From positions 1 to 25,543 of the IMG/VR virus record IMGVR_UViG_3300012943_000056: a stretch of 25,543 nucleotides of DNA; one strand, written 5' to 3'. The translations under genes were made by a program, and so were the position numbers. The notes beneath the pieces were generated by a model. That model saw nothing but the letters and a program-made list of their open reading frames with translations, had not been told where the DNA came from and made no database searches. This stretch comes from a virus (taxonomy: Duplodnaviria; Caudoviricetes). Positions 5,843-25,543 of the stretch are shown here, in pieces (within the stretch, counting starts at the first letter, position 1; the number at the start of each line of letters is the position of its first letter).

Positions 5843-6349
5843 ATGATGACGAAGACAGTAGATCAAGACGCACGCGCCTTCCTGACCAAGATTCAGAAGG
5901 GCAAGGATCTCAACAAGCTCAAGGCGGGGCTGCTCCCACCGGGGCTCGAGGATCGCAAGAACGTGCTCGACCTGAACATCGCCATCGGGCTCGACGTGTC
6001 CGGTAGCATCTCGCGGCAGGACTTCAACAAGTTCATGGCCCAGCTCGACGCCATCAAGGGCCTGAGTCGGGTGAAGGTGATCGAGGTCGACACCCAGGTC
6101 GTCGCCATGTACGACTACTACAAGTCCGGCAGCGGTGCCAAGATTGCCAGACTCGGCGGTGGCGGTGGCACAGTGTTCGCTCCGGCATTCGCAAAGTTCA
6201 AGCAGCTCAAGCCGGACGCCATCCTGTTCATGACGGACGGCGACGTGGCTGGAGAGTGCGCAGCTCCCGGCATTCCGACCGGGTGGATCATGACCAACGA
6301 TCGACCGCCGCCCTACGGGTTCGGCGAGGTCGTCGTGAGACTGAGGTAA
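5843..6349 (+). CDS. stand-alone vWA (MIDAS) domain protein
   Basis: IGLDVSGSI, GGGGT and FMTDG motifs. Confidence 0.85.
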   Translation: MMTKTVDQDARAFLTKIQKGKDLNKLKAGLLPPGLEDRKNVLDLNIAIGLDVSGSISRQDFNKFMAQLDAIKGLSRVKVIEVDTQVVAMYDYYKSGSGAKIARLGGGGGTVFAPAFAKFKQLKPDAILFMTDGDVAGECAAPGIPTGWIMTNDRPPPYGFGEVVVRLR

Positions 6350-6351
6350 CC

Positions 6352-6732
6352 ATGCAACTGACCGACAAGACCACGATCCTCTCTGCGGCGGAGCTGACCC
6401 GCCTGGGCTACCGTCGCGTGAGCAACGCGTACCAGCACGTCTCCAGGATCGATCGTGAGGACTGGATCCTCAAGCTCGCCGCACACCTCGACCGCGCGCC
6501 GGCCGACCTGTTCATCGTGCACGAGCATCGCGAGGGACCCGGCGTTCACTACCGCGTCGGCAAGCGTGTGTCCGGCGGATGGTGCGACTACTACCGCCGC
6601 TGCCTGTCGAAGGACACCCTGACCATCTCTGACCTCGCCACGTTCCGTGCCATCCCAGGCAGCGGCCACGACGACTGTGGCTACGTGGATCCAGAAACGA
6701 AGATCGAGGCGCTGCACCGAACAGGCCTGTGA
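6352..6732 (+). CDS. hypothetical protein (126 aa)
   Basis: SD GAGGT with ATG at 6352, rather than the overlapping 6256 start. Confidence 0.7.
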   Translation: MQLTDKTTILSAAELTRLGYRRVSNAYQHVSRIDREDWILKLAAHLDRAPADLFIVHEHREGPGVHYRVGKRVSGGWCDYYRRCLSKDTLTISDLATFRAIPGSGHDDCGYVDPETKIEALHRTGL

Positions 6733-7157
6733 TGGATCTCGACGGCGACGCACCCAAGGACGGGGTGCTATTCCAGGAGTACCTCAGGGACCCGTTCTGG
6801 ATGATCGTGGCGTGCTCCCTGGTCAACCTGACCAACTGGAGCAAGGCCAAGTACGCCCACGCCGAACTCGTGGAGCGATACCACGACCCCTATGGATTGG
6901 CCACCGCGCCAGAGGACGAGCTGCAGGAGATACTGCGACCGCTCGGCCTGTGGCGCAGGCGGACCAAGTCTCTGTACGCGCTTGCTGGAAGGTGGCTCAA
7001 GGACGGCCCACCGAGGTCGGCGAGGGACGTGTTGGATCTGCCTGGGTGCGGCCAGTATGCCGCCGATAGCTGGGCCATCTTCGTGGATGGCAGTCTCGAC
7101 GTCTATCCGTCGGACGGGAAGCTGAGGTGGTACCTCAGCCGTTTAAGAACTCGTTGA
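6732..7157 (+). CDS. HhH-GPD DNA glycosylase, MBD4-like
   Basis: DPFWMIVACSLVNLT, LRPLGL, HhH LPGCGQYAADSWAIF and catalytic Asp in DGKL parallel the MBD4 glycosylase domain. Confidence 0.8.
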   Translation: MDLDGDAPKDGVLFQEYLRDPFWMIVACSLVNLTNWSKAKYAHAELVERYHDPYGLATAPEDELQEILRPLGLWRRRTKSLYALAGRWLKDGPPRSARDVLDLPGCGQYAADSWAIFVDGSLDVYPSDGKLRWYLSRLRTR

Positions 7158-11319: not shown

Positions 11320-11958
11320 ATGAAAGTCAAGGAATTGCTGGAACAACAGGAGATGGACGAGGGTCTGAAGCACGCTGCGGCTGCTGCAGTCGCCGCCGCG
11401 TCTCTGCTTGGCCCAGCCAAGACCGCGCCGGCCGCTCTGCCGGCCGCTCCGGTGTCACGCATCGCCGCACCTGTGGCAGTCGCGGACAAGCCAGTCGTGT
11501 CGCCCCAGGCCGTGAAGACGGCCTACGTCCAGCCGGTCGTGAACAAGATCGCCAAGGAGTACAGCGTCGACAAGGACTTCGTGAAGGAGGTCGTCGCGCT
11601 CGCCCACAAGTATGCCCGCCCGACGTTCCCGACCGCGAAGGACATCCTGGCCGTCATTGCCGCCGAGAGCTCGTTCGATCCGAATGCGATCTCCCAGCTG
11701 AAGGACGATCCGGCCGTCGGCCTGATGCAGGTCCGTCCTGCCGTGTGGGGCAAGGAGCCGCACTCCCTGCTGGATCCTGAGGAGGCCATCAAGACTGGCG
11801 CGGAGATCCTCGCGAAGTATTACAAGAAGCTCGGCGACAAGGACGCGGCGATCGAGGCCTACAACATCGGCATCACCGGCTACCTCAACGGCAGGACGGC
11901 CGTGGCATACCTCGACAAGGTCCAGGACCGGCACGACCTGCTGTTCGGTGCCCTGTGA
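11320..11958 (+). CDS. SLT-family lytic transglycosylase, probably virion-associated
   Basis: AESSFDPNAIS (catalytic Glu), AVGLMQV and AYNIG motifs. Confidence 0.9.
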   Translation: MKVKELLEQQEMDEGLKHAAAAAVAAASLLGPAKTAPAALPAAPVSRIAAPVAVADKPVVSPQAVKTAYVQPVVNKIAKEYSVDKDFVKEVVALAHKYARPTFPTAKDILAVIAAESSFDPNAISQLKDDPAVGLMQVRPAVWGKEPHSLLDPEEAIKTGAEILAKYYKKLGDKDAAIEAYNIGITGYLNGRTAVAYLDKVQDRHDLLFGAL

Positions 11959-15605: not shown

Positions 15606-15633
15606 AAGGGAGTCCAGCGATGGGCTCCCTTTT
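15606..15633 (+). terminator. intrinsic terminator after sheath gene
   Basis: AAGGGAGTCCA-GCGA-TGGGCTCCCTT followed by a T-rich tail. Confidence 0.8.
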
Positions 15634-15672
15634 CATTTGCCGCATAGTATGATGTGTCCTCAGGAGGTATCT

Positions 15673-16359
15673 ATGAAACTTCAACTTGAAATCCGAGCAG
15701 CCGAGGGTGGCGCCGACGCCAAGCTCTTCGTGGCTGACCTGTCTTCCGCGTACTCACGCATGGCCGGCAAATTCGGCTGAAAGTGTAACGTCGCAGAGAG
15801 CAGGCAATCCGATAAAGGCCTGCACCTAGCCGTCCTGGCATTCGAGGGCGACGATCTAAGTTCCTTACATAACGAGGTGGGTGGCCACCGGATCCAGCGC
15901 GTCCCTCCGACGGAGCGCAAGGGCCGAGTGCACACCAGCACCGTCACGGTCGCCGTGGTGGACGCGTCCTCGTCTGACTTCACAATAGCCGATCGCGACC
16001 TCGAGGTACAGTGGTACTCGGGCAGCGGGTCCGGCGGTCAGAACCGGAACAAGACGCAGAACTGCTGCCGCCTCATCCACCGCCCGACCGGCATAGTCCG
16101 GACCGCGCAGATGAGGGACAGGAGCTCGAGCTACACGGCCGCGCTGAAGGCCCTTATGGGCGACCTGAAGTCGGCGCACGAAGGGGCCAGGGCCCAGTCG
16201 ACGAACGACGCCAGGCGTGACCAGATCGGCTCTGGGATGAGGGGCGACAAGGTTCGCACGTACCAATTTCAGCGCGACTCGGTTGGCGACCATCGCTCCG
16301 GGAAGGTTGCGCGCTGCAGGGACGTCATGCGGGGCAATTTCGATCTGCTGTGGTCGTAA
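15673..16359 (+). CDS. class I peptide chain release factor, RF1-type (PxT), lacking domain 1, with in-frame UGA at codon 36
   Basis: SD AGGAGG then ATG 15673: MKLQLEIRAAEGGADAKLF..KFG*KCN.. continues in frame into GHRIQRVPPTERKGRVHTS, GSGGQNRNK and KVRTY; TGA at 15778-15780. Confidence 0.85.
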
Positions 16360-16377
16360 GCGTGTTACAATGCCCGC

Positions 16378-16695
16378 ATGAAAGTTGAGCACGTAAAGAA
16401 AGAGGGCAAGGATTACCTGTTCGGCGATAGCCCGGGCGCGGTAATCCTTTCCCGCATTCTTTATGAGCAGTACCCGCAGGACTTCAGGGCGGTGACGAAG
16501 GGCGTGCAGAACGTCGAGCGCCGCCTCAAGAAGTTGATGGACCTCGACGCCGATGCGCGGCACTGGCTGTACCCGATGGTGCACAAGTACATCGGCGAGC
16601 AGTTCGCTTCGGTGAAGAATCCGCGGGCGGCGAGCTTCGCCAGGAACATCCTCACCGCCTCGGCCCGCGAGTCTCTGCTCTGGGACAAGCTGTAG
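16378..16695 (+). CDS. hypothetical protein (105 aa)
   Basis: ORF with phage-like codon usage, coupled to the next gene. Confidence 0.7.
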   Translation: MKVEHVKKEGKDYLFGDSPGAVILSRILYEQYPQDFRAVTKGVQNVERRLKKLMDLDADARHWLYPMVHKYIGEQFASVKNPRAASFARNILTASARESLLWDKL

Positions 16696-17000
16696 TGCAG
16701 GGTGAGACCTACAGCGTCGGCGACGAGGTCTACGTCATAGCGGACCACAAGGTCATCAAGACACGCGTCACGAAGGTCTCGCCGGTGACGGCTACGTGCC
16801 TCCTGCAGTATGGCGGCCTGATGCCGCACGAGGTCAAGTTCACGAAGGGCGGCGACCGGATCATCCACGCGTCGGTGCCATTCACGGCCGTCATGAGCCA
16901 CAAGGGCAGGGCCTTCTTTGATACGGCCAGCTACCCGCACAAGAATAAGGTGGGCAGCCTGGGCCAGCATGACCTGACGGACTGGGAATACATTCGGTAG
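16695..17000 (+). CDS. hypothetical protein (101 aa)
   Basis: GTG start overlapping the upstream TAG. Confidence 0.65.
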   Translation: MQGETYSVGDEVYVIADHKVIKTRVTKVSPVTATCLLQYGGLMPHEVKFTKGGDRIIHASVPFTAVMSHKGRAFFDTASYPHKNKVGSLGQHDLTDWEYIR

Positions 17001-17010
17001 AAAATATCAG

Positions 17011-17039
17011 TTTACTACCCCACCCGGGTATGGCAAAAT
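17011..17039 (+). promoter_or_regulatory. sigma70-like promoter upstream of the tRNA array
   Basis: TTTACT-17 nt-(TGG)CAAAAT; same -35 as the promoter at 22394. Confidence 0.55.
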
Positions 17040-17073
17040 GCTCACACATTGTTTATTTGCGTCGAGGAAATCG

Positions 17074-17099
17074 CATAAATAAACGAGGCTGGATAAATA
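17074..17099 (+). promoter_or_regulatory. two late-promoter motifs (CATAAATA, GATAAATA)
   Basis: Same core as 7429, 13332 and 20780. Confidence 0.55.
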
Positions 17100-17137
17100 T
17101 CTGGCAGATTAGCAAACAGTTTCGAATTGAGGTTATA

Positions 17138-17242
17138 ATGTCTTCATTGAGTGCAAGAGTGACAACGATTGGTGGTTCAGGGCTCGGATATAGCCTGATA
17201 GCCGTGTCGTCTGCCGCCCTTGTCCCAGGTAGCCAGATGTAA
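17138..17242 (+). CDS. putative 34-aa leader peptide MSSLSARVTTIGGSGLGYSLIAVSSAALVPGSQM
   Basis: SD GAGG at 17129-17132; stop codon abuts attenuator-like hairpins; 25 distinct codons. Confidence 0.55.
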   Translation: MSSLSARVTTIGGSGLGYSLIAVSSAALVPGSQM

Positions 17243-17302
17243 CCCTTGAGTAAGACTCAGATCTTTTCTCAAGGGGCCTCGAAAGGGCCCCTTGAACGTT
17301 TT
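17243..17302 (+). terminator. attenuator-like antiterminator/terminator pair
   Basis: CCCTTGAG (17243-50) pairs with CTCAAGGG (17268-75), mutually exclusive with the 11-bp hairpin TCAAGGGGCCT/GGGCCCCTTGA (17269-17295) followed by ACGTTTT. Confidence 0.6.
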
Positions 17303-17506
17303 CGGACCGCAAGGTCCAAACGCTGATTAGCAGTTCAGCGAGAACAAAAGGCGGACCGTTAAGATACCAGCCGGTGGCGCACCCTGAGGCTGGAGGAATG
17401 CGAGAGTGCGACAGTATTTTTGATGAAATATGGCCCGATCGAAAGGTCGGGCCATCTCATCCGCCCGATCCAGGTGAGGCGGCTGAGTATCGACCTGGAA
17501 GAATTC

Positions 17507-17589
17507 GCCCTTGTGTCTCATGCGAATTGGTACAGCTGCTGGACTTAAAATCCGGGATCTTGTGGGTTCGAGTCCCACCAAGGGCACCA
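17507..17589 (+). tRNA. tRNA-Leu(TAA), short variable loop, extra nt before the D arm
   Basis: Acceptor GCCCTTG/CAAGGGC, loop CT-TAA-AA, TTCGAGT, ACCA. Confidence 0.85.
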
Positions 17590-17611
17590 GACACAAGGAC
17601 ATCGTTTCATC

Positions 17612-17698
17612 GGGAGTGTAGACCGTAATGGTTTCGAGACAGTCTGTAAAACTGTTGCCCATAGGGCCAACTTGGTTCAATTCCAGGCATTCCCACCA
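17612..17698 (+). tRNA. tRNA-Tyr(GTA)
   Basis: ACAGT-CT GTA AA-ACTGT, long V arm, TTCAATT, ACCA. Confidence 0.92.
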
Positions 17699-17721
17699 CT
17701 TTCATCTCATCATTTATCACT

Positions 17722-17800
17722 GGCCCCATACCAGACGAGCCTTCTAATCTCGAGCACTGTAATTGGATCGATGCAGGTTCGAGTCCTGCTGGGGTCGCCA
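17722..17800 (+). tRNA. atypical tRNA-Arg(TCT)-like gene lacking a canonical D arm
   Basis: Acceptor GGCCCCA/TGGGGTC, loop CT-TCT-AA, canonical T arm, GCCA. Confidence 0.65.
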
Positions 17801-17803
17801 AGT

Positions 17804-17890
17804 TTGACTCCTAGTTTAAGGAGAACACACGGGAGTACCCGGCGTCCGACAGGACTTGGTGGTGCGGCGGTCATATCGTCGCGGAGTCAA
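17804..17890 (+). ncRNA. tRNA-like RNA without anticodon loop or CCA
   Basis: Closing stem TTGACTCC/GGAGTCAA; D-like TAGTTTAAGGAGAAC; hairpins CGGG-AGTA-CCCG and GTCC-GACA-GGAC; T-like GCGGC..GTCGC. Confidence 0.5.
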
Positions 17891-18023
17891 TTGAACCTTG
17901 TGGCCCATGAATGCACTTCGCAAGCCACCGCTACGCGTCACGGGTTGATGCGAGGTCTCCGACGCACCAAAGCACGGGGTTCGGGATCTTCCACAAATTC
18001 CTGGCGGAGTGCATCCGCCACCT

Positions 18024-18116
18024 ATGCTGAGGGTCCCACTCACCCGCTCAGAAGAGCTAAGTGGATAAATGCTGAGGGTCCCACTCACCCGCCCAGACAG
18101 GGCTAAGTGGATAAAT
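18024..18116 (+). repeat. tandem 45/46-nt structured repeat (2 copies)
   Basis: ATGCTGAGGGTCCCACTCACCC-GCTC agaa GAGC / GCCC agaca GGGC-TAAGTGGATAA. Confidence 0.9.
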
Positions 18117-18118
18117 TC

Positions 18119-18193
18119 GGGGAATGGGCAGGGCACCCAGGAAATCCTTGCAAGATTTCAGCTTGATCGGTTCGAGTCCGATATTCTCCACCA
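18119..18193 (+). tRNA. tRNA-Ala(TGC), reduced D arm
   Basis: GGGGAAT/ATTCTCC with G3:U70, loop CT-TGC-AA, ACCA. Confidence 0.85.
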
Positions 18194-18202
18194 ACTTGAT
18201 AT

Positions 18203-18280
18203 AGCGGGATCGAACAACGGTAGGTCACTGTCCTCATAAGGCAGACATGGTGTGGTGTTCAATTCCCACTCCCGCTACCA
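18203..18280 (+). tRNA. tRNA with CAT anticodon (Met-type), bulged T stem
   Basis: AGCGGGA/TCCCGCT, CT-CAT-AA, ACCA. Confidence 0.8.
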
Positions 18281-18293
18281 CCTTTTAGTTTAT

Positions 18294-18378
18294 GCCCTCG
18301 TGGTGAAATTGGTAGACACGCCAGCTTGAGGTGCTGGAGCGTAACAGTGTGGAGGTTCGAGTCCTCTCGAGGGCACCA
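18294..18378 (+). tRNA. tRNA-Leu(GAG)
   Basis: CCAGC-TT GAG GT-GCTGG, long V arm, ACCA. Confidence 0.93.
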
Positions 18379-18713
18379 ATTCGAAAGCAAAGGGGTCGTG
18401 ACTCATTGTCCGCAAGGATGAAGAAGCCAGCGATGGTGGAGACACTGAACCCGACGCCCCAACGTTATAAACCTTCGCAGCCGCCGGTGGCCGGGTGCAA
18501 TTGAAGAGACGTTGCGGACGCTACCAAGAACATGACCAGTACGCTGCAGTATAACCTGCTGAAGCCGGGGCTCACTCCGGACGTGGGAATCTGGTCGAAA
18601 GGGTTTACCCGTTCCTATGTGAATACGGGAAGATTACTCCAACGTACGGACCTGCAACATCTTATGATGCCGGCGTTGGGAAGAGAGGAGGTTGCAGTCC
18701 TCTTGAGAGATTC

Positions 18714-18788
18714 GCCCGGTTAGCTCAGCGGTAGAGCGGAATCCTTACACGGTTACGGTCGGGGGTTCGATCCCCTCACTGGGCACCA
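18714..18788 (+). tRNA. tRNA-Val(TAC)
   Basis: Canonical D and T arms, CT-TAC-AC, ACCA. Confidence 0.92.
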
Positions 18789-18791
18789 ATA

Positions 18792-19390
18792 TCTGACTGC
18801 TGTGGTGTACAGCCAAGCTGAAAACCGCCACAGAGGATAAGAGACCCTGCGGGTTGCAAACTGCGCGGTCGACAGTCGGACCAAATAAGAAGCGTCGATC
18901 TTCCTACCCGAAAGGGAGGTGACCCACACAACTCGTGGGTCTGGCAAATGCGGCGCACAATTCGTTTTGCAGTGATGTAGCTTATGGCCGGCGCGTTCTA
19001 AATCGCGTTAAGTGTTGCGTCGGCTCCTTCGATGGAAGATACGCGATTCGCCTGTCACTGCGATTTTAAGCACCATGGCTGTGCTTCGTGGAGTTAGCGG
19101 CCCCATGAAGAAGATGAGGATGGTGCAGCCGCAAGAACCTAACTCAACTCGTACCCGATCAGGGCACCCCATCAGCCGGAAGGCACAACATGTGGCCCGA
19201 GATCAGCCCAGGCATGAATGGGTGGTGCGATAGACGTTGGCTCCGGATGTGGGGTCAGCGCGACGAGAATATAAGCGACACCCCGCCGTGATACCTGCGT
19301 AAGGGATAGCCCGCCCACGGGTGCGAAATAAATGCAAAAGTCGGTAGCTCCGACAGGGACCCTCGCCGTGCGGCGACGAGGATTTCCCGC
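18792..19390 (+). ncRNA. cluster of structured non-coding RNA modules
   Basis: Successive closed domains (18792-18880, 18892-18956, 18969-19061, 19070-19145) separated by A/T-rich linkers; GNRA loops; no credible ORF. Confidence 0.55.
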
Positions 19391-19394
19391 CTTT

Positions 19395-19471
19395 CGGAAT
19401 GTAGCTCAGCCTGGTAGAGCGCTTGCTTCGGGAGCAAGAAGTCGTCGGTTCAATTCCGGCCTTTCCGACCA
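19395..19471 (+). tRNA. tRNA-Pro(CGG)
   Basis: CTTGC-TT CGG GA-GCAAG, ACCA. Confidence 0.93.
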
Positions 19472-19485
19472 AATTCTGTTTCATT

Positions 19486-19562
19486 CGGGGTGTAGCTCAG
19501 CCTGGTAGAGCGCTTGCTTTGGGAGCAAGATGTCGCAAGTTCAATTCCTGTCACCCCGACCA
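19486..19562 (+). tRNA. tRNA-Pro(TGG)
   Basis: CTTGC-TT TGG GA-GCAAG, ACCA. Confidence 0.93.
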
Positions 19563-19736
19563 TTTTGGTTCGCTGCCACCGTAAAAGGCAGCAAAGTTTT
19601 GTTCGGTTGGAGGGTCTGGAAAACTTATCCGACAGAGTAGCAGTCTGATGCAGCCTTACCTTAGTGGGTTCGAGAGATCATCCTAGTTGCATTCCTGATG
19701 GTTAAAAGATGCGCGCTGGCCGAACAGATTCATTTC

Positions 19737-19810
19737 GCGGGTGTAGTTTAATGGTAAAACTCCTGCCTTCCAAGCAGACCTCGAGGGTTCGATTCCCTCT
19801 ACCCGCTCCA
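19737..19810 (+). tRNA. tRNA-Gly(TCC)
   Basis: CT-TCC-AA loop, U73 discriminator, CCA. Confidence 0.93.
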
Positions 19811-19817
19811 ATTTCAT

Positions 19818-19893
19818 GCGGTATTAGTTCAGTTGGTAGAACACAACTTTGCCAAAGTTGAGGTCACCGGTTCGAGCCCGGTATACCGCTCCA
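19818..19893 (+). tRNA. tRNA-Gly(GCC)
   Basis: CAACT-TT GCC AA-AGTTG, TCCA. Confidence 0.93.
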
Positions 19894-20063
19894 TCGCGAC
19901 GTGATTGGCTGGTCACGTAAATCGGCAATTGCCTCCCCTCACCCGGGTACGTATTGCCTTGGCTCCTGGTCGTGCAGGGTTACTGGCACGTGCACCTGGT
20001 ATAGACAGGTTGGGTTAGCGGGATACCCGAGATACAAGCCGCTAGCTATTCAAGAATTGTGGG

Positions 20064-20180
20064 CTCACTCACGCCAGGACAAACGGGCGGTCGTCGTGTT
20101 GTCGTAATAGGGGAACTGGTATACCCATCCTCGCAAGAGGTAGCATGTGCGGGTTCGAGTCCCGTCGACATTGGAGTGAG
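20064..20180 (+). ncRNA. tRNA mimic with a GNRA hairpin replacing the anticodon arm, embedded in a larger stem
   Basis: D-like GGGAACTGGTATACCC; CCTC-GCAA-GAGG; canonical GCGGG-TTCGAGT-CCCGT; TGTCG/CGACA; outer CTCACTC/GAGTGAG; no CCA. Confidence 0.65.
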
Positions 20181-20266
20181 AACGCAGGACGGATGGAAAT
20201 ACGAGCTGTGTCCGCGGTAGCCGGCCACACTGTCCAGCTCTTCCATCCATGCGCTACCGCCTATTC

Positions 20267-20343
20267 GCCCAAGTGATGGAATTGGTATACGTGCCAGCCT
20301 CAAAATCTGGATCCTGTGGGTTCGAGTCCCACCTTGGGCACCA
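20267..20343 (+). tRNA. tRNA-Leu(CAA), short variable loop
   Basis: GCCCAAG/CTTGGGC, CT-CAA-AA, ACCA. Confidence 0.9.
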
Positions 20344-20440
20344 AGACGTTTCGGCAACTGGAAAGGTACGTCGCGCGGAGATGGCGCGGAAGGCACCAGC
20401 CACTCGTGAACCGTTAGCGAGGTCGAGACTGCATTTCATC

Positions 20441-20536
20441 GCTCCTTAGCACGGGTGTGCGGCTGGGCCTTATAGACCCGGGAGAGCTGCCAGATTAGCG
20501 GCAACGGCGAGGGTTCGAGTCCCCGAGGGAGCACCA
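20441..20536 (+). tRNA. atypical tRNA with TAT anticodon (reads AUA), long V arm, tiny D arm
   Basis: GCTCCTT/AGGGAGC, loop CT-TAT-AG, V arm GCTGCC..GGCAAC, bulged T stem, ACCA. Confidence 0.65.
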
Positions 20537-20558
20537 ACAATAACAACAAAGGATACCC

Positions 20559-20768
20559 ATGTCGCCGCAAGACTTCTGCTATTGGCTCCAGGGCGTGCTC
20601 GAGGTTACCAAGCCGGAGCAGCTCGACAAGGAGCAGCTCGCCATGGTTCGCGAGCACCTGGACCTGGTCTTCACCAAGGTCACGTCCGTCCCGAAGGTTG
20701 AACCGGTGATTAGTCGCAGACTCTGCGCCTCCGGCACTGCCTTCGACAGCACCACCAAGATCTGCTGA
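20559..20768 (+). CDS. hypothetical phage protein (69 aa)
   Basis: SD AAGGA; QDFCYWLQG..IREHL-type pattern; strong GC3 codon usage. Confidence 0.85.
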   Translation: MSPQDFCYWLQGVLEVTKPEQLDKEQLAMVREHLDLVFTKVTSVPKVEPVISRRLCASGTAFDSTTKIC

Positions 20769-20779
20769 TCCGACCGGCC

Positions 20780-20787
20780 CATAAATA
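20780..20787 (+). promoter_or_regulatory. late-promoter motif (CATAAATA)
   Basis: Same core, 5 nt before ATG 20793. Confidence 0.5.
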
Positions 20788-20792
20788 CTCTC

Positions 20793-21263
20793 ATGAGGAG
20801 AGTAGTCGGTCTGGTAGCTTCGGTACTTCTCCACCTGATCTTCCTGGTGGCCCTACTCATTCGTCCCGACCTTACCGGCGCCGGCAAGCCAGCGATGGCA
20901 GATCTCGAGGAGAACGTCATCCACATATCCATGATGGGTGACATGATCAAGCCGAAGGAGACTGGCGACGGAGAGTCGACCAATGACGACGAGGACCGCT
21001 GTGCCAATGGCACGAAGAAGTACAACGGCGTCGGGTTCATCTACAGCCGGGAGACCGGCATCATATCCGACGTGCCAGAGACGACGCCGGCCTACAAGGC
21101 CGGCATCCGAGAGTACGACGTCCTCATGAATCCGACCGACGGCGACCTGCCGCCCGGCCCGGCGACGATCGTCATCATGCGCTACGGCGTGTCGATGTCG
21201 TTCGTGATAGAGACGACCAAGATATGCTACGACACCGAGAAGACCGCGGGTCCTAGCGAGTAA
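20793..21263 (+). CDS. membrane-anchored PDZ-domain protein
   Basis: N-terminal TM; YNGVGF..ISDVPETTPAYKAGIREYDVL is a PDZ signature. Confidence 0.75.
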   Translation: MRRVVGLVASVLLHLIFLVALLIRPDLTGAGKPAMADLEENVIHISMMGDMIKPKETGDGESTNDDEDRCANGTKKYNGVGFIYSRETGIISDVPETTPAYKAGIREYDVLMNPTDGDLPPGPATIVIMRYGVSMSFVIETTKICYDTEKTAGPSE

Positions 21264-21418
21264 ATGCGAGGGGTGTTGGACGTTCGTCTACTGATGTAAC
21301 GTGCCTCCGGTTAGTGGCCGAGAGGGCTTCAGCGGCTGCCAACATCTTTGTTCCTGTGGTGGATTCACTATCCTCCGTCGCGCCACATGCATGGAAAATG
21401 CGACACCTATTCCCAAAT

Positions 21419-21501
21419 GCCGGGTTGGCTCAGTGGCGACAGCAGCTGTTTTGTAAGCAGCCATACAAACACCGGGAGTTCGAATCTCTCACTCGGCACC
21501 A
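21419..21501 (+). tRNA. tRNA-Thr(TGT) with 12-nt unpaired variable loop
   Basis: GCTGT-TT TGT AA-GCAGC, ACCA. Confidence 0.88.
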
Positions 21502-21529
21502 GATTTTTTGCAACAGAGAAACATACCAT

Positions 21530-21640
21530 ATGAATATTTTAGTGTACCTTACCTTGGCCATCTTCATTGTCGCACCCGTCCTCATGTTCTACACATGGGG
21601 CAAGCAGGAGCTGCGCACACGGTTCAAGTTGAACATCTGA
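21530..21640 (+). CDS. small single-TM protein (36 aa)
   Basis: MNILVYLTLAIFIVAPVLMFYTWGKQELRTRFKLNI fills the gap between two tRNAs. Confidence 0.55.
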   Translation: MNILVYLTLAIFIVAPVLMFYTWGKQELRTRFKLNI

Positions 21641-21648
21641 TTTTCTTC

Positions 21649-21723
21649 GCGCCCTTAGCTCAGCGGTAGAGCGCTTCCTTGACATGGAATAGGCCGCAGG
21701 TTCGATCCCTGCAGGGCGCACCA
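21649..21723 (+). tRNA. tRNA-Val(GAC)
   Basis: TT-GAC-AT loop, canonical arms, ACCA. Confidence 0.93.
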
Positions 21724-21735
21724 TTTTCGTTTTGT

Positions 21736-21891
21736 GCGGTTGTGGCGCAGTGGATGACGGGCCCGCAATAAGCGGGATGGATCTGCCCGAGAACGGCGTG
21801 AGCCTCGCGATGGTCTGCAGAAACACGCGTGGCGATATCCGACCGGGGTACGGCAGTGTAGGTTGGGTTCGATTCCCAACCGACCGCACCA
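21736..21891 (+). ncRNA. 156-nt tRNA-like RNA with a large structured insert replacing the anticodon arm
   Basis: Acceptor GCGGTTG/CGACCGC plus ACCA; D-like GCGCAGTGGATGACG; T arm GTTGGG-TTCGATT-CCCAAC. Confidence 0.75.
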
Positions 21892-21926
21892 GTTTTGAAG
21901 TGGCGTATAATGGCCACACGATTTGA

Positions 21927-22002
21927 CGCAGAGTAGAGCAGCTGGAAGCTCGTGTGGCTCATAACCACGAGGTCGGGGGTTCAAATCCCTCCTCTGCTAC
22001 CA
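21927..22002 (+). tRNA. tRNA-Met(CAT), probable initiator
   Basis: C1:U72 mismatch, GAGC/GCTC D stem, CT-CAT-AA, ACCA. Confidence 0.88.
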
Positions 22003-22064
22003 TTTTGGCTGTCTAAGAGGGTTCCTTAAAACATTTAACGGCAAATATTACTCTCCGACGCCAT

Positions 22065-22093
22065 TTGACTTCCGACCCCTCGGGTGCTAACGT
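22065..22093 (+). promoter_or_regulatory. possible sigma70-like promoter for tmRNA
   Basis: TTGACT-17 nt-TAACGT. Confidence 0.4.
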
Positions 22094-22099
22094 CCGTTG

Positions 22100-22385
22100 G
22101 GCGGATGATGAGTGTACAATGTTCGACTGAATGAGTTTTGGACGGGGCTCTCAGATGCCCCCACCTCCACCAATTAAGCGCAGTCATTTGCGCGAGTGCG
22201 GGGGTGACAGGATTCGACAGGGCTAGCTAGGAAGAAACGCACTCCGACAGGCGATCGTCGTAAATGAAGCGAAACAAGTAAACGCTGCAAATGACGCAGA
22301 ATTCGAAATGGCCCTCGCGGCCTAATTCGAATGCGGACACCCGGTCCGTATAACCCAACGGTAGGGGGTGGGGCAACCCACCCCT
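22100..22385 (+). ncRNA. ssrA: circularly permuted two-piece tmRNA (outer ends approximate)
   Basis: Acceptor piece GACGGGGC..GCCCC-CACCTCC-A-CCA ends at 22172; coding piece starts GGGGGTGACAGGATTCGAC at 22200 (G3:U70); tag AANDAEFEMALAA* at 22284-22325. Confidence 0.9.
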
Positions 22386-22393
22386 GTCTAAGA

Positions 22394-22422
22394 TTTACTT
22401 GGGTCGGCGCATCGGTTATAAT
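22394..22422 (+). promoter_or_regulatory. sigma70-like promoter
   Basis: TTTACT-17 nt-TATAAT. Confidence 0.7.
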
Positions 22423-22508
22423 GGCACATGGCGCGCGACTTACTCACTGGACGATACTTTAGGCCAGCAGCGAAATCCGGTCATCAGATAACAAAGGACA
22501 ACGACTCA

Positions 22509-23528
22509 ATGTCAATATTCCATGCGGAGACGCGATTCATCCTTCACGATCACGAGGCAGCCGAGTGGCAGCTCAGTCGGAAGAAGGGTTCGTACGTCGC
22601 TCTCTACCTCGAGCTTGAGGACCTCAACAAGTCGTTCGCGTTCCTCTGCGACGCGCTCAAGCTGACGGTGCATGCTGCCCAGGCCGAGTCCAAGTTCAAC
22701 AGCAACGTGTTCGCGTACGACTCCGAGATGATGTTCATCTGCGGCGAGAACAACGTCCTCGAGGGCTGGGTCCACCAGGACCGCGCCGAAGAGGTCAATG
22801 CGATCGTCAGCAAGTTCAAGACGGCCGCGTCGTCTTCCAAGGTCAAGTGGTTCTTCAAGGACCCGTCCGGCCGCATCACGTCGTCCGACCTGAACCTCGA
22901 GGGATCGAACCCGCTCAACGAGTTCTACCCCTGGATGCACCAGGACATCGACTCGTTCGCCAAGGCCTTCCTGAAGTCCAAGGCCAACGTCATGCTGCTG
23001 CTCGGTCCTCCGGGCACCGGCAAGACGAGCTTCATCCGCCGGCTGATCCGCGCGATGAACTTCGAGACCTGGATCACGTACGATCCGGATGTGCAGCAGT
23101 CCGAGTCCTTCTTCATGCGCTTCGCGAAGCCGACGGCGGAAGACCGCTACGGCGACGACAGCGACGACACCAGCCCGCGTCTCCTCGTCATGGAGGACGC
23201 CGACACGATGCTCGAGGCACGCGGCGACGGCAACAAGCTGATGACCCGGATCCTCAACCTGGCGGACGGCCTCGTGTCGCTGCCGGATCGCAAGATCATC
23301 TTCAGCACGAACCTGCCGGGACTGACGAGCATCGACGACGCGCTCCTGCGCCCGGGCCGCTGCTTCGCGGCGATCAGGTTCAGGCACCTGACGAAGGCCG
23401 AGGCGTCCGTAGCCTGCCAGGCGATCGGTCGCGAGTACACCGGCACGTCGGACAAGGTTACGCTGGCCGAGGCCATCAACGGCGACGACCACAATCAATT
23501 AGGGGTGATGAAGATCGGATTCACCTAA
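22509..23528 (+). CDS. AAA+ ATPase (single classic AAA domain)
   Basis: Walker A GPPGTGKT, Walker B LVMEDAD, second region of homology STN..IDDALLRPGR; SD AAGGA favours ATG 22509 over 22428. Confidence 0.9.
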   Translation: MSIFHAETRFILHDHEAAEWQLSRKKGSYVALYLELEDLNKSFAFLCDALKLTVHAAQAESKFNSNVFAYDSEMMFICGENNVLEGWVHQDRAEEVNAIVSKFKTAASSSKVKWFFKDPSGRITSSDLNLEGSNPLNEFYPWMHQDIDSFAKAFLKSKANVMLLLGPPGTGKTSFIRRLIRAMNFETWITYDPDVQQSESFFMRFAKPTAEDRYGDDSDDTSPRLLVMEDADTMLEARGDGNKLMTRILNLADGLVSLPDRKIIFSTNLPGLTSIDDALLRPGRCFAAIRFRHLTKAEASVACQAIGREYTGTSDKVTLAEAINGDDHNQLGVMKIGFT

Positions 23529-23745
23529 GGATGCGACGCGAGTAAAGCCTGGTGCTCCCACGGGAGCTGGCAAGAGATCCAGGACAAGCATGATCCATCT
23601 CGCCGACATGAACAAGTCGTAAATGGTTCCGCGTGGTAGCCGCGTAAGAACTCCCTAATTTTGAATTCCTGTTTGGCCGTGCCTGGATAAAAACTCAAAC
23701 GGCCATGCGTTGACGACGGGCGTACGCCTCGAGACGCATTTACAC

Positions 23746-23820
23746 GGGACCATAGCTCAGTGGTAGAGCAAAGTCTTGATAAGGCTTAGGTCGTAGGTTC
23801 GAGCCCTACTGGTCCCACCA
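23746..23820 (+). tRNA. tRNA-Ile(GAT)
   Basis: AAGTC-TT GAT AA-GGCTT, ACCA. Confidence 0.93.
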
Positions 23821-23956
23821 GATGTGAAGCGCGAAGTACAAGCGCGACGCTAGGCGGCTGTAGTATGACTACGTGAAGGTCGCCGGACGCAGGTAAGGCA
23901 AGTCAACGGAGAATGGGAAGCGTCATCGCTGATACCTCACCGGCCTGCAACTATTC

Positions 23957-24039
23957 GCCCGATTGGTGGAATTGGTAGACACGATGGTTTTAGATGCCAT
24001 TGCGCAAGCGTGAGGGTTCGAGTCCCTCGTCGGGCACCA
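23957..24039 (+). tRNA. tRNA-Leu(TAG)
   Basis: ATGGT-TT TAG AT-GCCAT, V arm, ACCA. Confidence 0.93.
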
Positions 24040-24043
24040 ATGT

Positions 24044-24116
24044 TTTGGCATAGTTTATGAAGGTATAAAACGCGAGGATACCTCGAGAAGTCGGGATCAT
24101 GGTCGCGACTGCCAAA
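24044..24116 (+). ncRNA. tRNA-like RNA with a 3-nt loop in the anticodon position, no CCA
   Basis: TTTGGCA/TGCCAAA; TA-GTTT..AAAC D arm; CGAGG-ATA-CCTCG; GTCG..CGAC T-like arm. Confidence 0.55.
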
Positions 24117-24131
24117 TCAAATTCGATTTTC

Positions 24132-24210
24132 GCCCCTGTGGTCAAACTGGTAAAGGCGCTCGGCTCAGAACTGAGAGATTTTGTGAGTTCGAATCTCACC
24201 TGGGGCACCA
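24132..24210 (+). tRNA. tRNA-Leu(CAG), short variable loop
   Basis: CTCGG-CT CAG AA-CTGAG, ACCA. Confidence 0.9.
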
Positions 24211-24213
24211 AGT

Positions 24214-24379
24214 TTGTGGAAGTAAGCTTAGAAGCAGCTACCTTTAATGAGTGACCCGCTGAAACGGTCTGTCGTGCATGACACTCCAAAGTAGGACGGA
24301 TTGTAGCCACGACGATCGGCGGCGGCCGCCGCGTTCGATCGCACGATGCTAGCGTCTTCGGCGTAACAGCACACCACAA
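24214..24379 (+). ncRNA. 23S rRNA L11-binding domain (H43/H44) mimic with ~107-nt insertion
   Basis: GCTTAGAAGCAGC..TTTAATGAGT and GCGTAACAGCACAC match 23S nt ~1055-1104; closed by TTGTGG/CCACAA. Confidence 0.75.
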
Positions 24380-24389
24380 TTCATTTCAT

Positions 24390-24460
24390 GGCATGGTCCT
24401 GATACCGCTCGTATCCACATGCGGGTTCAGATGGCGCGGATACCGCCTACAGTGCCGCCA
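24390..24460 (+). ncRNA. 71-nt CCA-terminated RNA with complementary (kissing) loops
   Basis: GGCAT/GTGCC stem plus GCCA; loops GTATCC (24411-16) and GGATAC (24438-43). Confidence 0.55.
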
Positions 24461-24464
24461 ATTT

Positions 24465-24556
24465 GGAGACGTGGGAGAGCCTGGTTTAATCCGCAACCCT
24501 GGAAAGGTTGTTGGCCCGCAAGGGCCACGTGAGTTCGAATCTCACCGTCTCCGCCA
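24465..24556 (+). tRNA. tRNA-Ser(GGA)
   Basis: CAACC-CT GGA AA-GGTTG, long V arm, GCCA. Confidence 0.93.
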
Positions 24557-24586
24557 TTTACAAGTCGGGCATCGATGTGATATAAT
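24557..24586 (+). promoter_or_regulatory. sigma70-like promoter
   Basis: TTTACA-18 nt-TATAAT directly after the tRNA CCA. Confidence 0.6.
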
Positions 24587-24610
24587 CTTCTCACTTATTG
24601 GGAGGATGAC

Positions 24611-25207
24611 ATGCACGATACCCCTTTGTTCTGGGCCACTATGGCATTAGTCGGCGCGACCTTGATTCTTGCGGGTGTTGCTGCCTGGGGCCTGATCTAT
24701 ACACCGAAGCAGGCTGAATCTGATCGTCAGAACGAAAGATGGATGCGAGCACTTAGTGTTATCTCCTTCTATAACTTTGGTTTTGGATCAAAGGTTCCAT
24801 TGGAGTGGTCATCAGAGATTCACAACCTAGCCTTGTTACGGGATGTCAACATCAATCAGCTCAAGGATGCACTGCTCAGGCGCATTGCCGAGATGCCAAC
24901 TCAGGGACTTGCTCCTGTCATAGGGGCTCATGAAAATCTAATACGGGCATTGGCTAACAGATTGGCTGTCGATCCGATTCCATTCTTACATGTCTATCAA
25001 CCGCAGCATCTCGCGGATCGTGAAAAGCAAATTGACGCGGCCCTTGCGGCTATACCCTCTATGAGTCTTGGCGCCAGAGCTTCATTGGCTATGCTAGGTC
25101 TTGTGAAGAAGGTGCAGGCCAATGAAGATGGCTTTGGTGAACTGGTTGAGGCTGGGTTAGACGAAGTGAAAAAACTCGATGAATTTATTGCGGCTACGAA
25201 AAAATGA
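24611..25207 (+). CDS. AT-richer membrane-anchored hypothetical protein (198 aa)
   Basis: SD GGAGG; N-terminal TM; many A/T-ending codons. Confidence 0.7.
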   Translation: MHDTPLFWATMALVGATLILAGVAAWGLIYTPKQAESDRQNERWMRALSVISFYNFGFGSKVPLEWSSEIHNLALLRDVNINQLKDALLRRIAEMPTQGLAPVIGAHENLIRALANRLAVDPIPFLHVYQPQHLADREKQIDAALAAIPSMSLGARASLAMLGLVKKVQANEDGFGELVEAGLDEVKKLDEFIAATKK

Positions 25208-25395
25208 CAGAGCCCAGCTACTGCTGCAACACCTGCTACGAGAAGTCTGTAGCGCGTGACATGTTCGCCGACATGTTCGGCCGCCGCATGATCCTGTGCC
25301 CGACGTGCGGCAACAAGCGTTGCCCGAAGGCGACGGACCACGGCAACACCTGCACGAACAGCAACGAGCCAGGACAGGTCGGCTCGAATTACTAA
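25204..25395 (+). CDS. small Cys-rich (Zn-binding) protein (63 aa)
   Basis: CCNTC..CPTCGNKRCPKATDH..C; ATGA overlap with upstream gene. Confidence 0.8.
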   Translation: MTEPSYCCNTCYEKSVARDMFADMFGRRMILCPTCGNKRCPKATDHGNTCTNSNEPGQVGSNY

Positions 25396-25398
25396 TTT

Positions 25399-25488
25399 GG
25401 AGACGTGGGGGAGCGGTTTATCCCAGAACTTTGCTAAAGTTCCGGTCCCGAGAGGGACCCGTGAGTTCGAATCTCACCGTCTCCGCCA
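25399..25488 (+). tRNA. tRNA-Ser(GCT)
   Basis: GAACT-TT GCT AA-AGTTC, long V arm, GCCA. Confidence 0.93.
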
Positions 25489-25493
25489 ACTTT

Positions 25494-25543
25494 GGAAGCG
25501 TGGCAGAGCCCGGTTTATTGCACCTGTCTCGAAAGCAGGAGAC
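25494..25543 (+). tRNA. tRNA-Ser(CGA), truncated by window end
   Basis: GGAAGCG-TG-GCAGAGCCCGGTTTATTGC-A-CCTGT-CT CGA AA-GCAGG. Confidence 0.8.

Follow-up and report, generated by a model that had tools for sequence, protein, structure and literature searches.

What does a phage gain from keeping, at the head of its transfer RNA (tRNA) genes, a release-factor gene interrupted by an early stop codon and a short leader followed by competing hairpins, and do these elements serve one purpose with the other RNAs that lie among the tRNAs? The question is raised by positions 15,673 to 25,543 of the IMG/VR record IMGVR_UViG_3300012943_000056 (Caudoviricetes). The whole stretch of 25,543 nucleotides (nt), hereafter the window, is the entire virus record (25.5 kb, or ~8% of the genome by CheckV), and its 3' end falls inside a tRNA array. 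Contigs of one DNA sequencing run match the window and may be its source; no RNA run was listed. The region is a tRNA island of a jumbo myophage from soil; the tail sheath is nearest to those of the jumbo myophages RsoM2USA, CM1/RAS14, Xoo-sp13 and XacN1 (48-55% identity), and relatives in IMG/VR reach up to 78% identity. A sequence-only reading had described an integrated locus for sensing and relieving translation stress. We favour, at a probability of roughly 0.62, two separate ribosome-read switches that would supply translation parts on demand, accompanied by independently acquired passengers. The coordinates of the attenuator, the tRNA-shaped RNAs and the ribosomal RNA (rRNA) mimic (Table 1) were assigned in the present analysis, the sequence-only reading having given none.

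A release-factor gene behind an in-frame stop

The best NCBIfam match of the gene for the release factor (RF), of class I, is prfA (202 bits, below the cut-off of 400). The alignment begins at profile position 107 of 347, so that domain 1 is missing and the product falls short of a full-length RF1, and in 140 of 141 homologues the frame upstream of the start stays open for fewer than 80 codons. P78-P79-T80, Q75, T88 and the GGQ motif are near-invariant, i.e. the protein keeps the PxT loop, the Gln and Thr of the third-base pocket and the catalytic motif of RF1. Modelled with Trp at position 36, it reached a predicted local distance difference test (pLDDT) score of 88.5 and a template modelling (TM) score of 0.92 against ribosome-bound RF1; column 36 is Trp in three distinct aligned PDB RF1 sequences. 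PrfH, the rescue factor of the RtcB2-PrfH pair, also lacks domain 1 (PMC1586002), but the window gene scores only 49 bits with its model (TIGR03072, cut-off 166.65) and the gene upstream encodes the tail sheath, with no adjoining rtcB.

Codon 36 is TGA. The same stop occupied the gate in all 159 homologous loci (158 at column 36, one aligned at column 35), with no other stop in the aligned part, and this in a tblastn ranking that favours TGG, i.e. works against TGA-bearing loci; the median identity among TGA-gated proteins is 55%. Elsewhere TGA is an ordinary stop, closing 14 of the 25 correctly delimited open reading frames (ORFs) of the window (27 were listed and two with wrong coordinates excluded) and 271 of 861 long ORFs in gate-bearing phages, and the remaining Trp codons in homologues of the RF gene are TGG (302/302). 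The base that follows the gate is A in 117, G in 16, C in 10 and T in none of 143 distinct contexts (A 33, C 5 and G 1 after clustering at 70%, n=39), as against T at this position in 94 of 288 ordinary TGA stops. A Shine-Dalgarno (SD)-like motif precedes the gene in 133 of 141 homologues, and among them no conserved start codon was found from which translation could re-initiate downstream of TGA. We infer readthrough of the UGA at codon 36, with Trp the most probable residue. Because the full-length factor needs this readthrough, its supply would rise when termination at UGA is weak.

Simpler accounts of the stop were set aside. A prfB-type frameshift does not suit the window gene, where the site reads GGC-TGA-A and stays in frame; a TGA-recoded (code 4) phage is contradicted by flanking genes in the standard code, and the combination of many in-frame TGAs with a UCA suppressor tRNA was not found. 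Of 119 database proteins, 116 show Trp in column 36, which we did not use as evidence, since the family's DNA has TGA and these proteins are probably code-4 gene calls. Among 2101 tRNAs in the RF-bearing loci, 14 ARAGORN calls carry a CUA anticodon (possible amber suppressors in some relatives). Hirsh-like tRNA-Trp (U11-A24) was equally common near RF genes (29/41) and near the rRNA mimics described below (7 of 10 scored).

The stop extends through the wider family. From 325 RF loci, 21 of them unclassifiable, we obtained 251 distinct genes, and 245 of these are gated by TGA, TAG or TAA, which would be passed by readthrough or by a prfB-like +1 shift. Readthrough-type gates consist of one TGA (161 genes), two TGA (18), TGA plus TAG (2) or TAG (1), and shift-type gates of CTT-TGA (49), CTT-TAG (11) or CTT-TAA (2), with one gene combining TGA and a CTT-TAG shift; 21 genes have double gates. 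The 63 genes with a CTT-stop +1 motif, most with an SD-like motif ahead of it, belong to clades other than the window's. A rapidly built tree of 127 representatives places the window gene in a clade (55 rows, Shimodaira-Hasegawa-like approximate likelihood ratio support 99) that is entirely of the TGA readthrough type, and TAG gates are dispersed among TGA gates; distant members have TGA at different codons, frequently twice, and are flanked by standard-code genes. Judged from these alignments, the conserved feature of the family is the early stop, neither its residue nor its position. The apparent interchangeability of the stops, all three of which serve as gates, hints that the phage factor may have a wider stop specificity than RF1, or else that general termination capacity is what the gate may report.

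The arrangement resembles the autoregulation of prfB (RF2), in which an early stop within a release-factor gene must likewise be passed, and the CTT-stop +1 sites bring 63 family members still closer to it. It differs in that the phage product is RF1-like and lacks domain 1, that the window's clade reads through in frame with no shift, and that the family's gates use all three stops; one survey (PMC12421855) detected neither TAG in the motif of prfB nor, in prfA, a programmed shift. The nearest viral parallel is the class I RF gene of giant viruses (Mimivirus R726, Megavirus mg280), which also needs UGA readthrough (Trp was proposed) as well as a CUU-stop-C frameshift, interpreted as autoregulation (PMC3521657). 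There the factor is of eukaryotic type and both events fall in one gene, and the available text of that source describes no link to a tRNA array. The Jade phages of Borges et al. (bioRxiv 2021.08.26.457843) share with the window phage an RF1-type factor, but, in the portion of the preprint at hand, it occurs only in TGA-recoded phages, is itself in standard code and lies beside a UCA suppressor tRNA, whereas the window's genome uses the standard code.

As to what the gate would sense, a shortage of host RF2 seems the best single candidate, at slightly less than even odds; sensing of the factor's own activity, which presupposes that it reads all stops, is possible and somewhat less probable, and a fixed dose limiter is unlikely.

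A leader ahead of the tRNA array

The second switch would lie downstream, where the short leader ORF is followed by two mutually exclusive hairpins and then by the tRNA genes. At the head of the homologous array, the close relatives G121, G122 and G127 (the closest set being these and G131) have an SD-led ORF of 31-32 codons, followed by a hairpin whose 5' arm can pair alternatively with the ORF's end. A TATAAATA box lies upstream of the leaders in G121 and G122, where a 66-nt element also follows the hairpin as it does in the window (among viral records, its pattern matched in these two alone). G121 and G131 have, in addition, a second array (B) with a largely complementary tRNA set and a leader of its own with a similar switch. 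Six leaders in five records (window, G121A, G121B, G122A, G127A and G131B) thereby share one ORF-antiterminator-terminator geometry, while their sequences differ. Under constrained folding, a ribosome at the stop left the terminator in 6/6 leaders, and with the ribosome further upstream the nascent RNA formed the antiterminator.

The codons follow the array that they precede. With the residue sets defined from G121 (array A only: S, L, A, G, P, Y; array B only: M, D, R, Q, K, N, C, W, E, H, F), the window leader has 23 array-A-only against 3 array-B-only residues of 33 (base-shuffle p 0.0002). The other array-A leaders gave ratios of 22:1 (G121A, p <0.0002), 21:1 (G122A, p 0.0004) and 25:1 (G127A, p <0.0002), and the array-B leaders the reverse, 5:27 (G121B, p 0.0008) and 7:18 (G131B, p 0.056); within G121, the two leaders differ in composition at p 1.3e-9 (Fisher). 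Only one Gln codon of the window leader has no cognate tRNA in the array, provided that a weak Arg call is counted. Under a strict scan, such a leader precedes 4 of the 21 arrays that lie near RF genes (one doubtful), with none in 30 control windows. Of the parts of an attenuator, the window has an SD-led ORF ahead of the array, mutually exclusive hairpins of which the antiterminator would be masked by a ribosome at the stop, and codons that match the product. Comparison shows the layout and the codon match, and the leader appears to work as an attenuator. In two further loci (L010, L032), leaders with all 20 amino acids stand before near-complete tRNA arrays, upstream of gated RF genes.

In operation, a ribosome that completes the 34 codons would sit at the stop over 17243-17250, leaving the terminator to form and the tRNA genes at a low level, whereas slow decoding of Ser, Leu, Ala, Gly, Pro, Tyr, Val, Thr or Ile codons would hold the ribosome back, favour the antiterminator and allow the array to be transcribed. 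The logic is that of the amino-acid operon attenuators (trpL, hisL, pheL, thrL and the multivalent ilvGMEDA leader), in which a lagging ribosome frees the antiterminator and a ribosome at the stop gives the terminator. With the trp and ilv leaders the window shares a short translated ORF, competing hairpins and codons that match what the operon supplies; unlike them, it would control phage tRNA genes, samples about nine amino acids and uses mixed synonymous codons, not runs of a single codon. Two arrays with complementary leaders in one genome (G121) and the atypical U tail of the window also set it apart.

Several observations weigh against these two switches. For the first, 6 of the 251 family genes are ungated, no selenocysteine insertion sequence (SECIS)-like or other conserved stimulatory RNA structure was found at the gate, and the 2101 tRNAs of 323 RF-bearing loci include a single, doubtful call with a UCA anticodon. 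For the second, the U tail of the window terminator is weak and was not listed by a consensus terminator scan; tails are interrupted in the window, G121 and G122, and canonical in G127A and G131B. The TATAAT box lies over the leader's start codon, which a transcript starting from it would lack. An SD-filtered scan found no leader before array A of G131 or the array of record G081, the two B leaders, which were chosen by eye, lack an SD motif, and G121 and G122, as near relatives of each other, are not independent. In plain codon diversity the window leader does not exceed random expectation (25 distinct codons among 34, p 0.75). Of the 21 SD-led short ORFs tested in this way, none exceeded it once the number of tests was allowed for (best p 0.038); the test asked the wrong question and was replaced by the array-matched one. 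On balance, both ribosome-based sensors that the sequence-only reading had proposed, the UGA-gated RF and the codon-sampling attenuator, came through strong comparative tests, respectively the invariant TGA and the composition and folds of the leaders.

Passengers and the coherence of the island

Replacement parts, which had also been claimed, are present: besides the RF1-like gene, the 18 tRNAs and the permuted tmRNA (transfer-messenger RNA) are solid and of known kind. The tRNAs called by ARAGORN are Tyr, Ala, Met (two), Leu (four), Val (two), Pro (two), Gly (two), Thr, Ile and Ser (two). Further candidates are weak calls for Leu(UAA) (17507-17589) and for an Arg(UCU)-like gene (17722-17800), and a Ser-like gene that the contig end truncates. 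The tmRNA is an ordinary rescue part, scoring well above the RF04321 cut-off and with a tag frame (22284-22325) that ends in ALAA. A permuted tmRNA is also present in G121 and G122, and the standard model exceeded its cut-off in at least 8 of 23 near-complete records, a lower bound, as this model misses permuted forms. Phage tRNA arrays and tmRNAs have been treated as aids to translation or as counter-defence (PMC7162821, PMC7824862, PMC10264068), with a large tRNA set, tmRNA and release factor in a jumbo phage as in the present case, and the accessible parts of these sources describe no ribosome-read control of them.

Table 1. Features of the tRNA island, with positions in the window
Feature	Position	Strand	Details
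Release-factor gene's -10-like box (15648) and Shine-Dalgarno site	15648..15667	+	from sequence; right after the tail-sheath terminator (15606-15631)
RF1-like class I release factor lacking domain 1	15673..16359	+	228 codons; PPT recognition loop, GGQ; Pfam PCRF and RF-1
In-frame TGA gate, codon 36	15778..15780	+	next base A; column is Trp in host RF1
Two small ORFs (105 and 101 amino acids)	16378..17000	+	no Pfam or NCBIfam match
Candidate leader promoters	17076..17139	+	TAAATA at 17076 and 17094; TATAAT at 17134 over leader start codon; putative function
34-codon leader ORF, amino acids matching downstream tRNA set	17138..17242	+	GAGG 5 nt upstream
Antiterminator	17243..17275	+	17243-17250 pairs with 17268-17275; -15.4 kcal/mol
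Terminator-like hairpin	17269..17302	+	-21.2 kcal/mol; U tail atypical, interrupted
Conserved non-coding element between terminator and first tRNA	17343..17408	+	80-85% identical in G121 and G122
tRNA array	17507..25543	+	18 ARAGORN calls
tRNA-shaped RNA (UAU loop, long variable arm, CCA end)	20440..20536	+	fold; not called by ARAGORN default; 84.5% identical copy in G121
158-nt tRNA-shaped RNA with large insert (acceptor stem, T arm, CCA)	21734..21891	+	fold only
Two-piece (permuted) tmRNA	22056..22389	+	Rfam RF04321 105 bits (cut-off 47); RF01850 90 bits
AAA ATPase	22428..23528	+	behind a sigma70-like promoter (22394-22422)
Conserved structured non-coding element before tRNA-Leu(UAG)	23826..23956	+	87-88% identical in G121 and G122; 28-nt core in G131
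Mimic of 23S rRNA GTPase-associated centre (top of H42, H43, H44)	24210..24382	+	108-nt insert 24253-24360

Of the possible decoys that had been suggested, the rRNA look-alike is real as a structure and the tRNA mimics are unconfirmed. The two larger tRNA-shaped RNAs and the smaller ones (folds at 18969-19062 with a CUA-containing loop, at 20095-20178 with a T arm and a short tetraloop hairpin at the anticodon position, and at 24389-24460 with a CCA end) are all recognized by their folds; the one at 20440 has a homologue, and none was found for that at 21734-21891 or for the others.

In the 23S rRNA, the uL11-binding domain spans E. coli positions 1051-1108. The mimic retains the pairs of the top of H42, of H43 and of H44 and the positions of U1060 and A1088; it differs in being free-standing, closed by a plain stem and split at 1090/1091 by an insert of 47-338 nt, and A1067 varies in 9 of 73 elements. 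Pattern searches returned 86 viral and 22 genomic stretches, and 73 distinct elements were scored after 17 rows were dropped (five true members that the expression missed, the rest rRNA genes or chance). Among 35 elements, 14 of 24 pairs show compensatory change and 94% of cells are paired; the covariation score of 0.53 (0.16 in shuffles) was attained by 0 of 500 shuffles, many core positions being preset by the search pattern. Rfam has no family for the element, which is also present in the cultured phages CBB, pf16 and XacN1. A group I intron as its insert was rejected (too short, last base variable). Going by the positions kept, the mimic probably binds uL11 off the ribosome. Towards the 3' end of many inserts stands another conserved motif, in which a short hairpin tops an internal loop (e.g., L177, L191, L196, L206, L210); it is absent from the window's insert. 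Two mimic-bearing phage records (L277, L278) have short GGQ (ArfB-like) genes.

Whether all this forms one anti-defence unit, co-selected and co-regulated, with both sensors switching on replacement parts and decoys against host systems that shut down translation, depends on how the parts travel. In its favour, all of them lie in the window on one strand and in one region, and in G081 an RF gene, a mimic, a tmRNA, an AAA ATPase (a homologue of the window's, in the tRNA region; L072) and tRNAs fall inside 18 kb. Phage tRNAs that counter tRNA-depleting defences have been published (PMC10264068, PMC7824862). The RF gene does keep company with tRNA arrays: when the 58 RF loci that reach 12 kb or more are considered, 47 contain at least five tRNAs, with the RF after the array in 24, inside it in 22, before it in 1 and on the opposite strand in 0, so that in 46/47 it lies in or behind the array. 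Many of the 47 are near relatives, and 70% representatives gave 4 after, 12 inside and 0 before. In G121 and G131 the RF gene closes array B behind its leader.

The remaining links find little support, the co-occurrence tests having sampled 39-49 records each. None of 49 records with a mimic has a full-length RF (none of the 22 near-complete ones; 50 of the 86 mimic loci were taken, and two partial matches were a short GGQ protein). Among RF records, the mimic pattern matched in 0 of 45, and the mimic model matched 2 of 39, one of these weakly (near-complete records: 1 of 20); the mimic is absent from all three near-complete closest relatives (G121, G127, G131). Independent distribution of the elements had been set beforehand as evidence against a linked set, and it is what the mimic shows. 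The RF gene itself is present in two of these three relatives and in 0 of 5 cultured sheath relatives, and in G121 it lies ~46 kb from the array that is homologous to the window's; window gene order is not conserved among relatives. Within the window the leader lies downstream of the RF gene, and promoter-like TATAAT boxes (21906, 22417 and 24581) divide the region and could feed the tmRNA and the mimic independently of the leader. The integrated locus is thus partly supported, through the coupling of leader and tRNA array and, in relatives, of array and RF; we consider the single, dedicated anti-defence unit unlikely.

Because the RF-array linkage recurs and the mimic is distributed independently, the recurrent core, seen across the sampled genomes, is the leader, the tRNA array and the gated RF, and the remainder is a variable shell. 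In most relatives the RF gene could share the attenuated transcript, and in the window it would have moved ahead of the leader; the mimic would travel on its own.

Other features of the window may be recorded here. In the array, the spacer before tRNA-Ala contains a tandem pair of 45-nt units at 18024-18115 (29 nt, 97% identical), and 18793-18962 holds two adjoining structured elements after tRNA-Val with no Rfam match (18833-18882 is 90% identical in G121 and 18880-18962 87% identical in G122, there directly 3' of tRNA-Val). A structured 325-nt spacer (19068-19392) with an SD-led 42-codon ORF (19105-19233) has no homologue that we could find. Blastn of the inter-tRNA spacers against cultured phages matched nothing useful. 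Some tRNAs of G121 and G131 carry long anticodon-arm inserts (L554:11152-11278, 127 nt; L558:4229-4333, 105 nt), possibly introns or degenerate genes. A 156-amino-acid predicted membrane protein (20793-21263, no Pfam match) recurs within array A of G121 and at 8 loci that bear an RF gene. Upstream of the tail genes lie a CobT-like VWA protein (1260-3833), a VWA-like DUF2201 protein (5843-6349) and an HhH-GPD glycosylase (6729-7157), as well as an SLT transglycosylase (11320-11958).

Dosage, chance and the role of the switches

A further alternative would make fixed dosage or timing devices of both elements, not sensors. The TGA would then cap a factor that is harmful in excess (lacking domain 1, it would escape recycling by RF3), an antitermination factor of phage or host origin, or the stage of infection, would override the terminator, and the composition of the leader would be a by-product. 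The leaky type of context (A or C after UGA, never U) would indeed give a constant leak, the double gates fit strong damping, promoter-like boxes adjoin the leader, and excess RF2 is toxic in B. subtilis (PMC12421855). A weak ribosome-binding site would, however, be a simpler cap, yet most of the genes retain an SD motif; the gate has been rebuilt as a prfB-type feedback motif in 63 genes, and complementary leader compositions within one genome are hard to obtain without decoding. We judge this explanation less likely still than the anti-defence unit. Chance clustering in a tRNA-rich accessory region, with an RF pseudogene or a TGA-recoded phage and a random leader ORF, accords with the habit of phage tRNA regions to gather unrelated small genes and with the ordinary codon diversity of the leader, but is largely refuted already by a TGA fixed among proteins so divergent, by neighbours in standard code and by the conserved layout and composition of the leaders, and is barely credible.

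A bolder joint reading, speculative and in our estimate improbable, would reunite the passengers with the switches. In it the leaders would take a census of decoding for each array and open each on demand, an all-stop RF would regulate itself through its internal stop, normally on the attenuated transcript, and the mimic, as a uL11-binding RNA decoy, would weaken host RF1 and the stringent response; the domain-1-less factor would work without uL11, and the phage would thereby sense and outlast tRNA-cleaving and ribosome-stalling defences. The link between the mimic and this factor has its basis in a reviewer's remark that RF1 is inactive on L11-less ribosomes (PMC1586002).

For the two separate switches, our preferred reading, dedication to defence is not implied: they would respond to any shortage in translation, host defence included, and a general supply-on-demand role fits the data as well as an anti-defence role. 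The phage, to judge by its genes and those of its relatives, probably supplements translation parts when the host runs short. Among openly accessible publications, our literature search yielded no account of the gate family, of the leader or of the mimic.

The purpose of phage tRNA genes has been called a 50-year-old question (PMC10264068). Leader codons that match the gated array would make the idea of replenishment upon depletion directly testable with a 170-base reporter, the composition of a leader predicting which tRNAs are watched. The mimic of the GTPase-associated centre is a widespread phage RNA, cultured phages included. Next to prfB, a stop-gated RF1-like family that employs any of the stops, passed by readthrough or by frameshift, would represent a second feedback on release factors of bacterial type, one that its internal stop hides from annotation.

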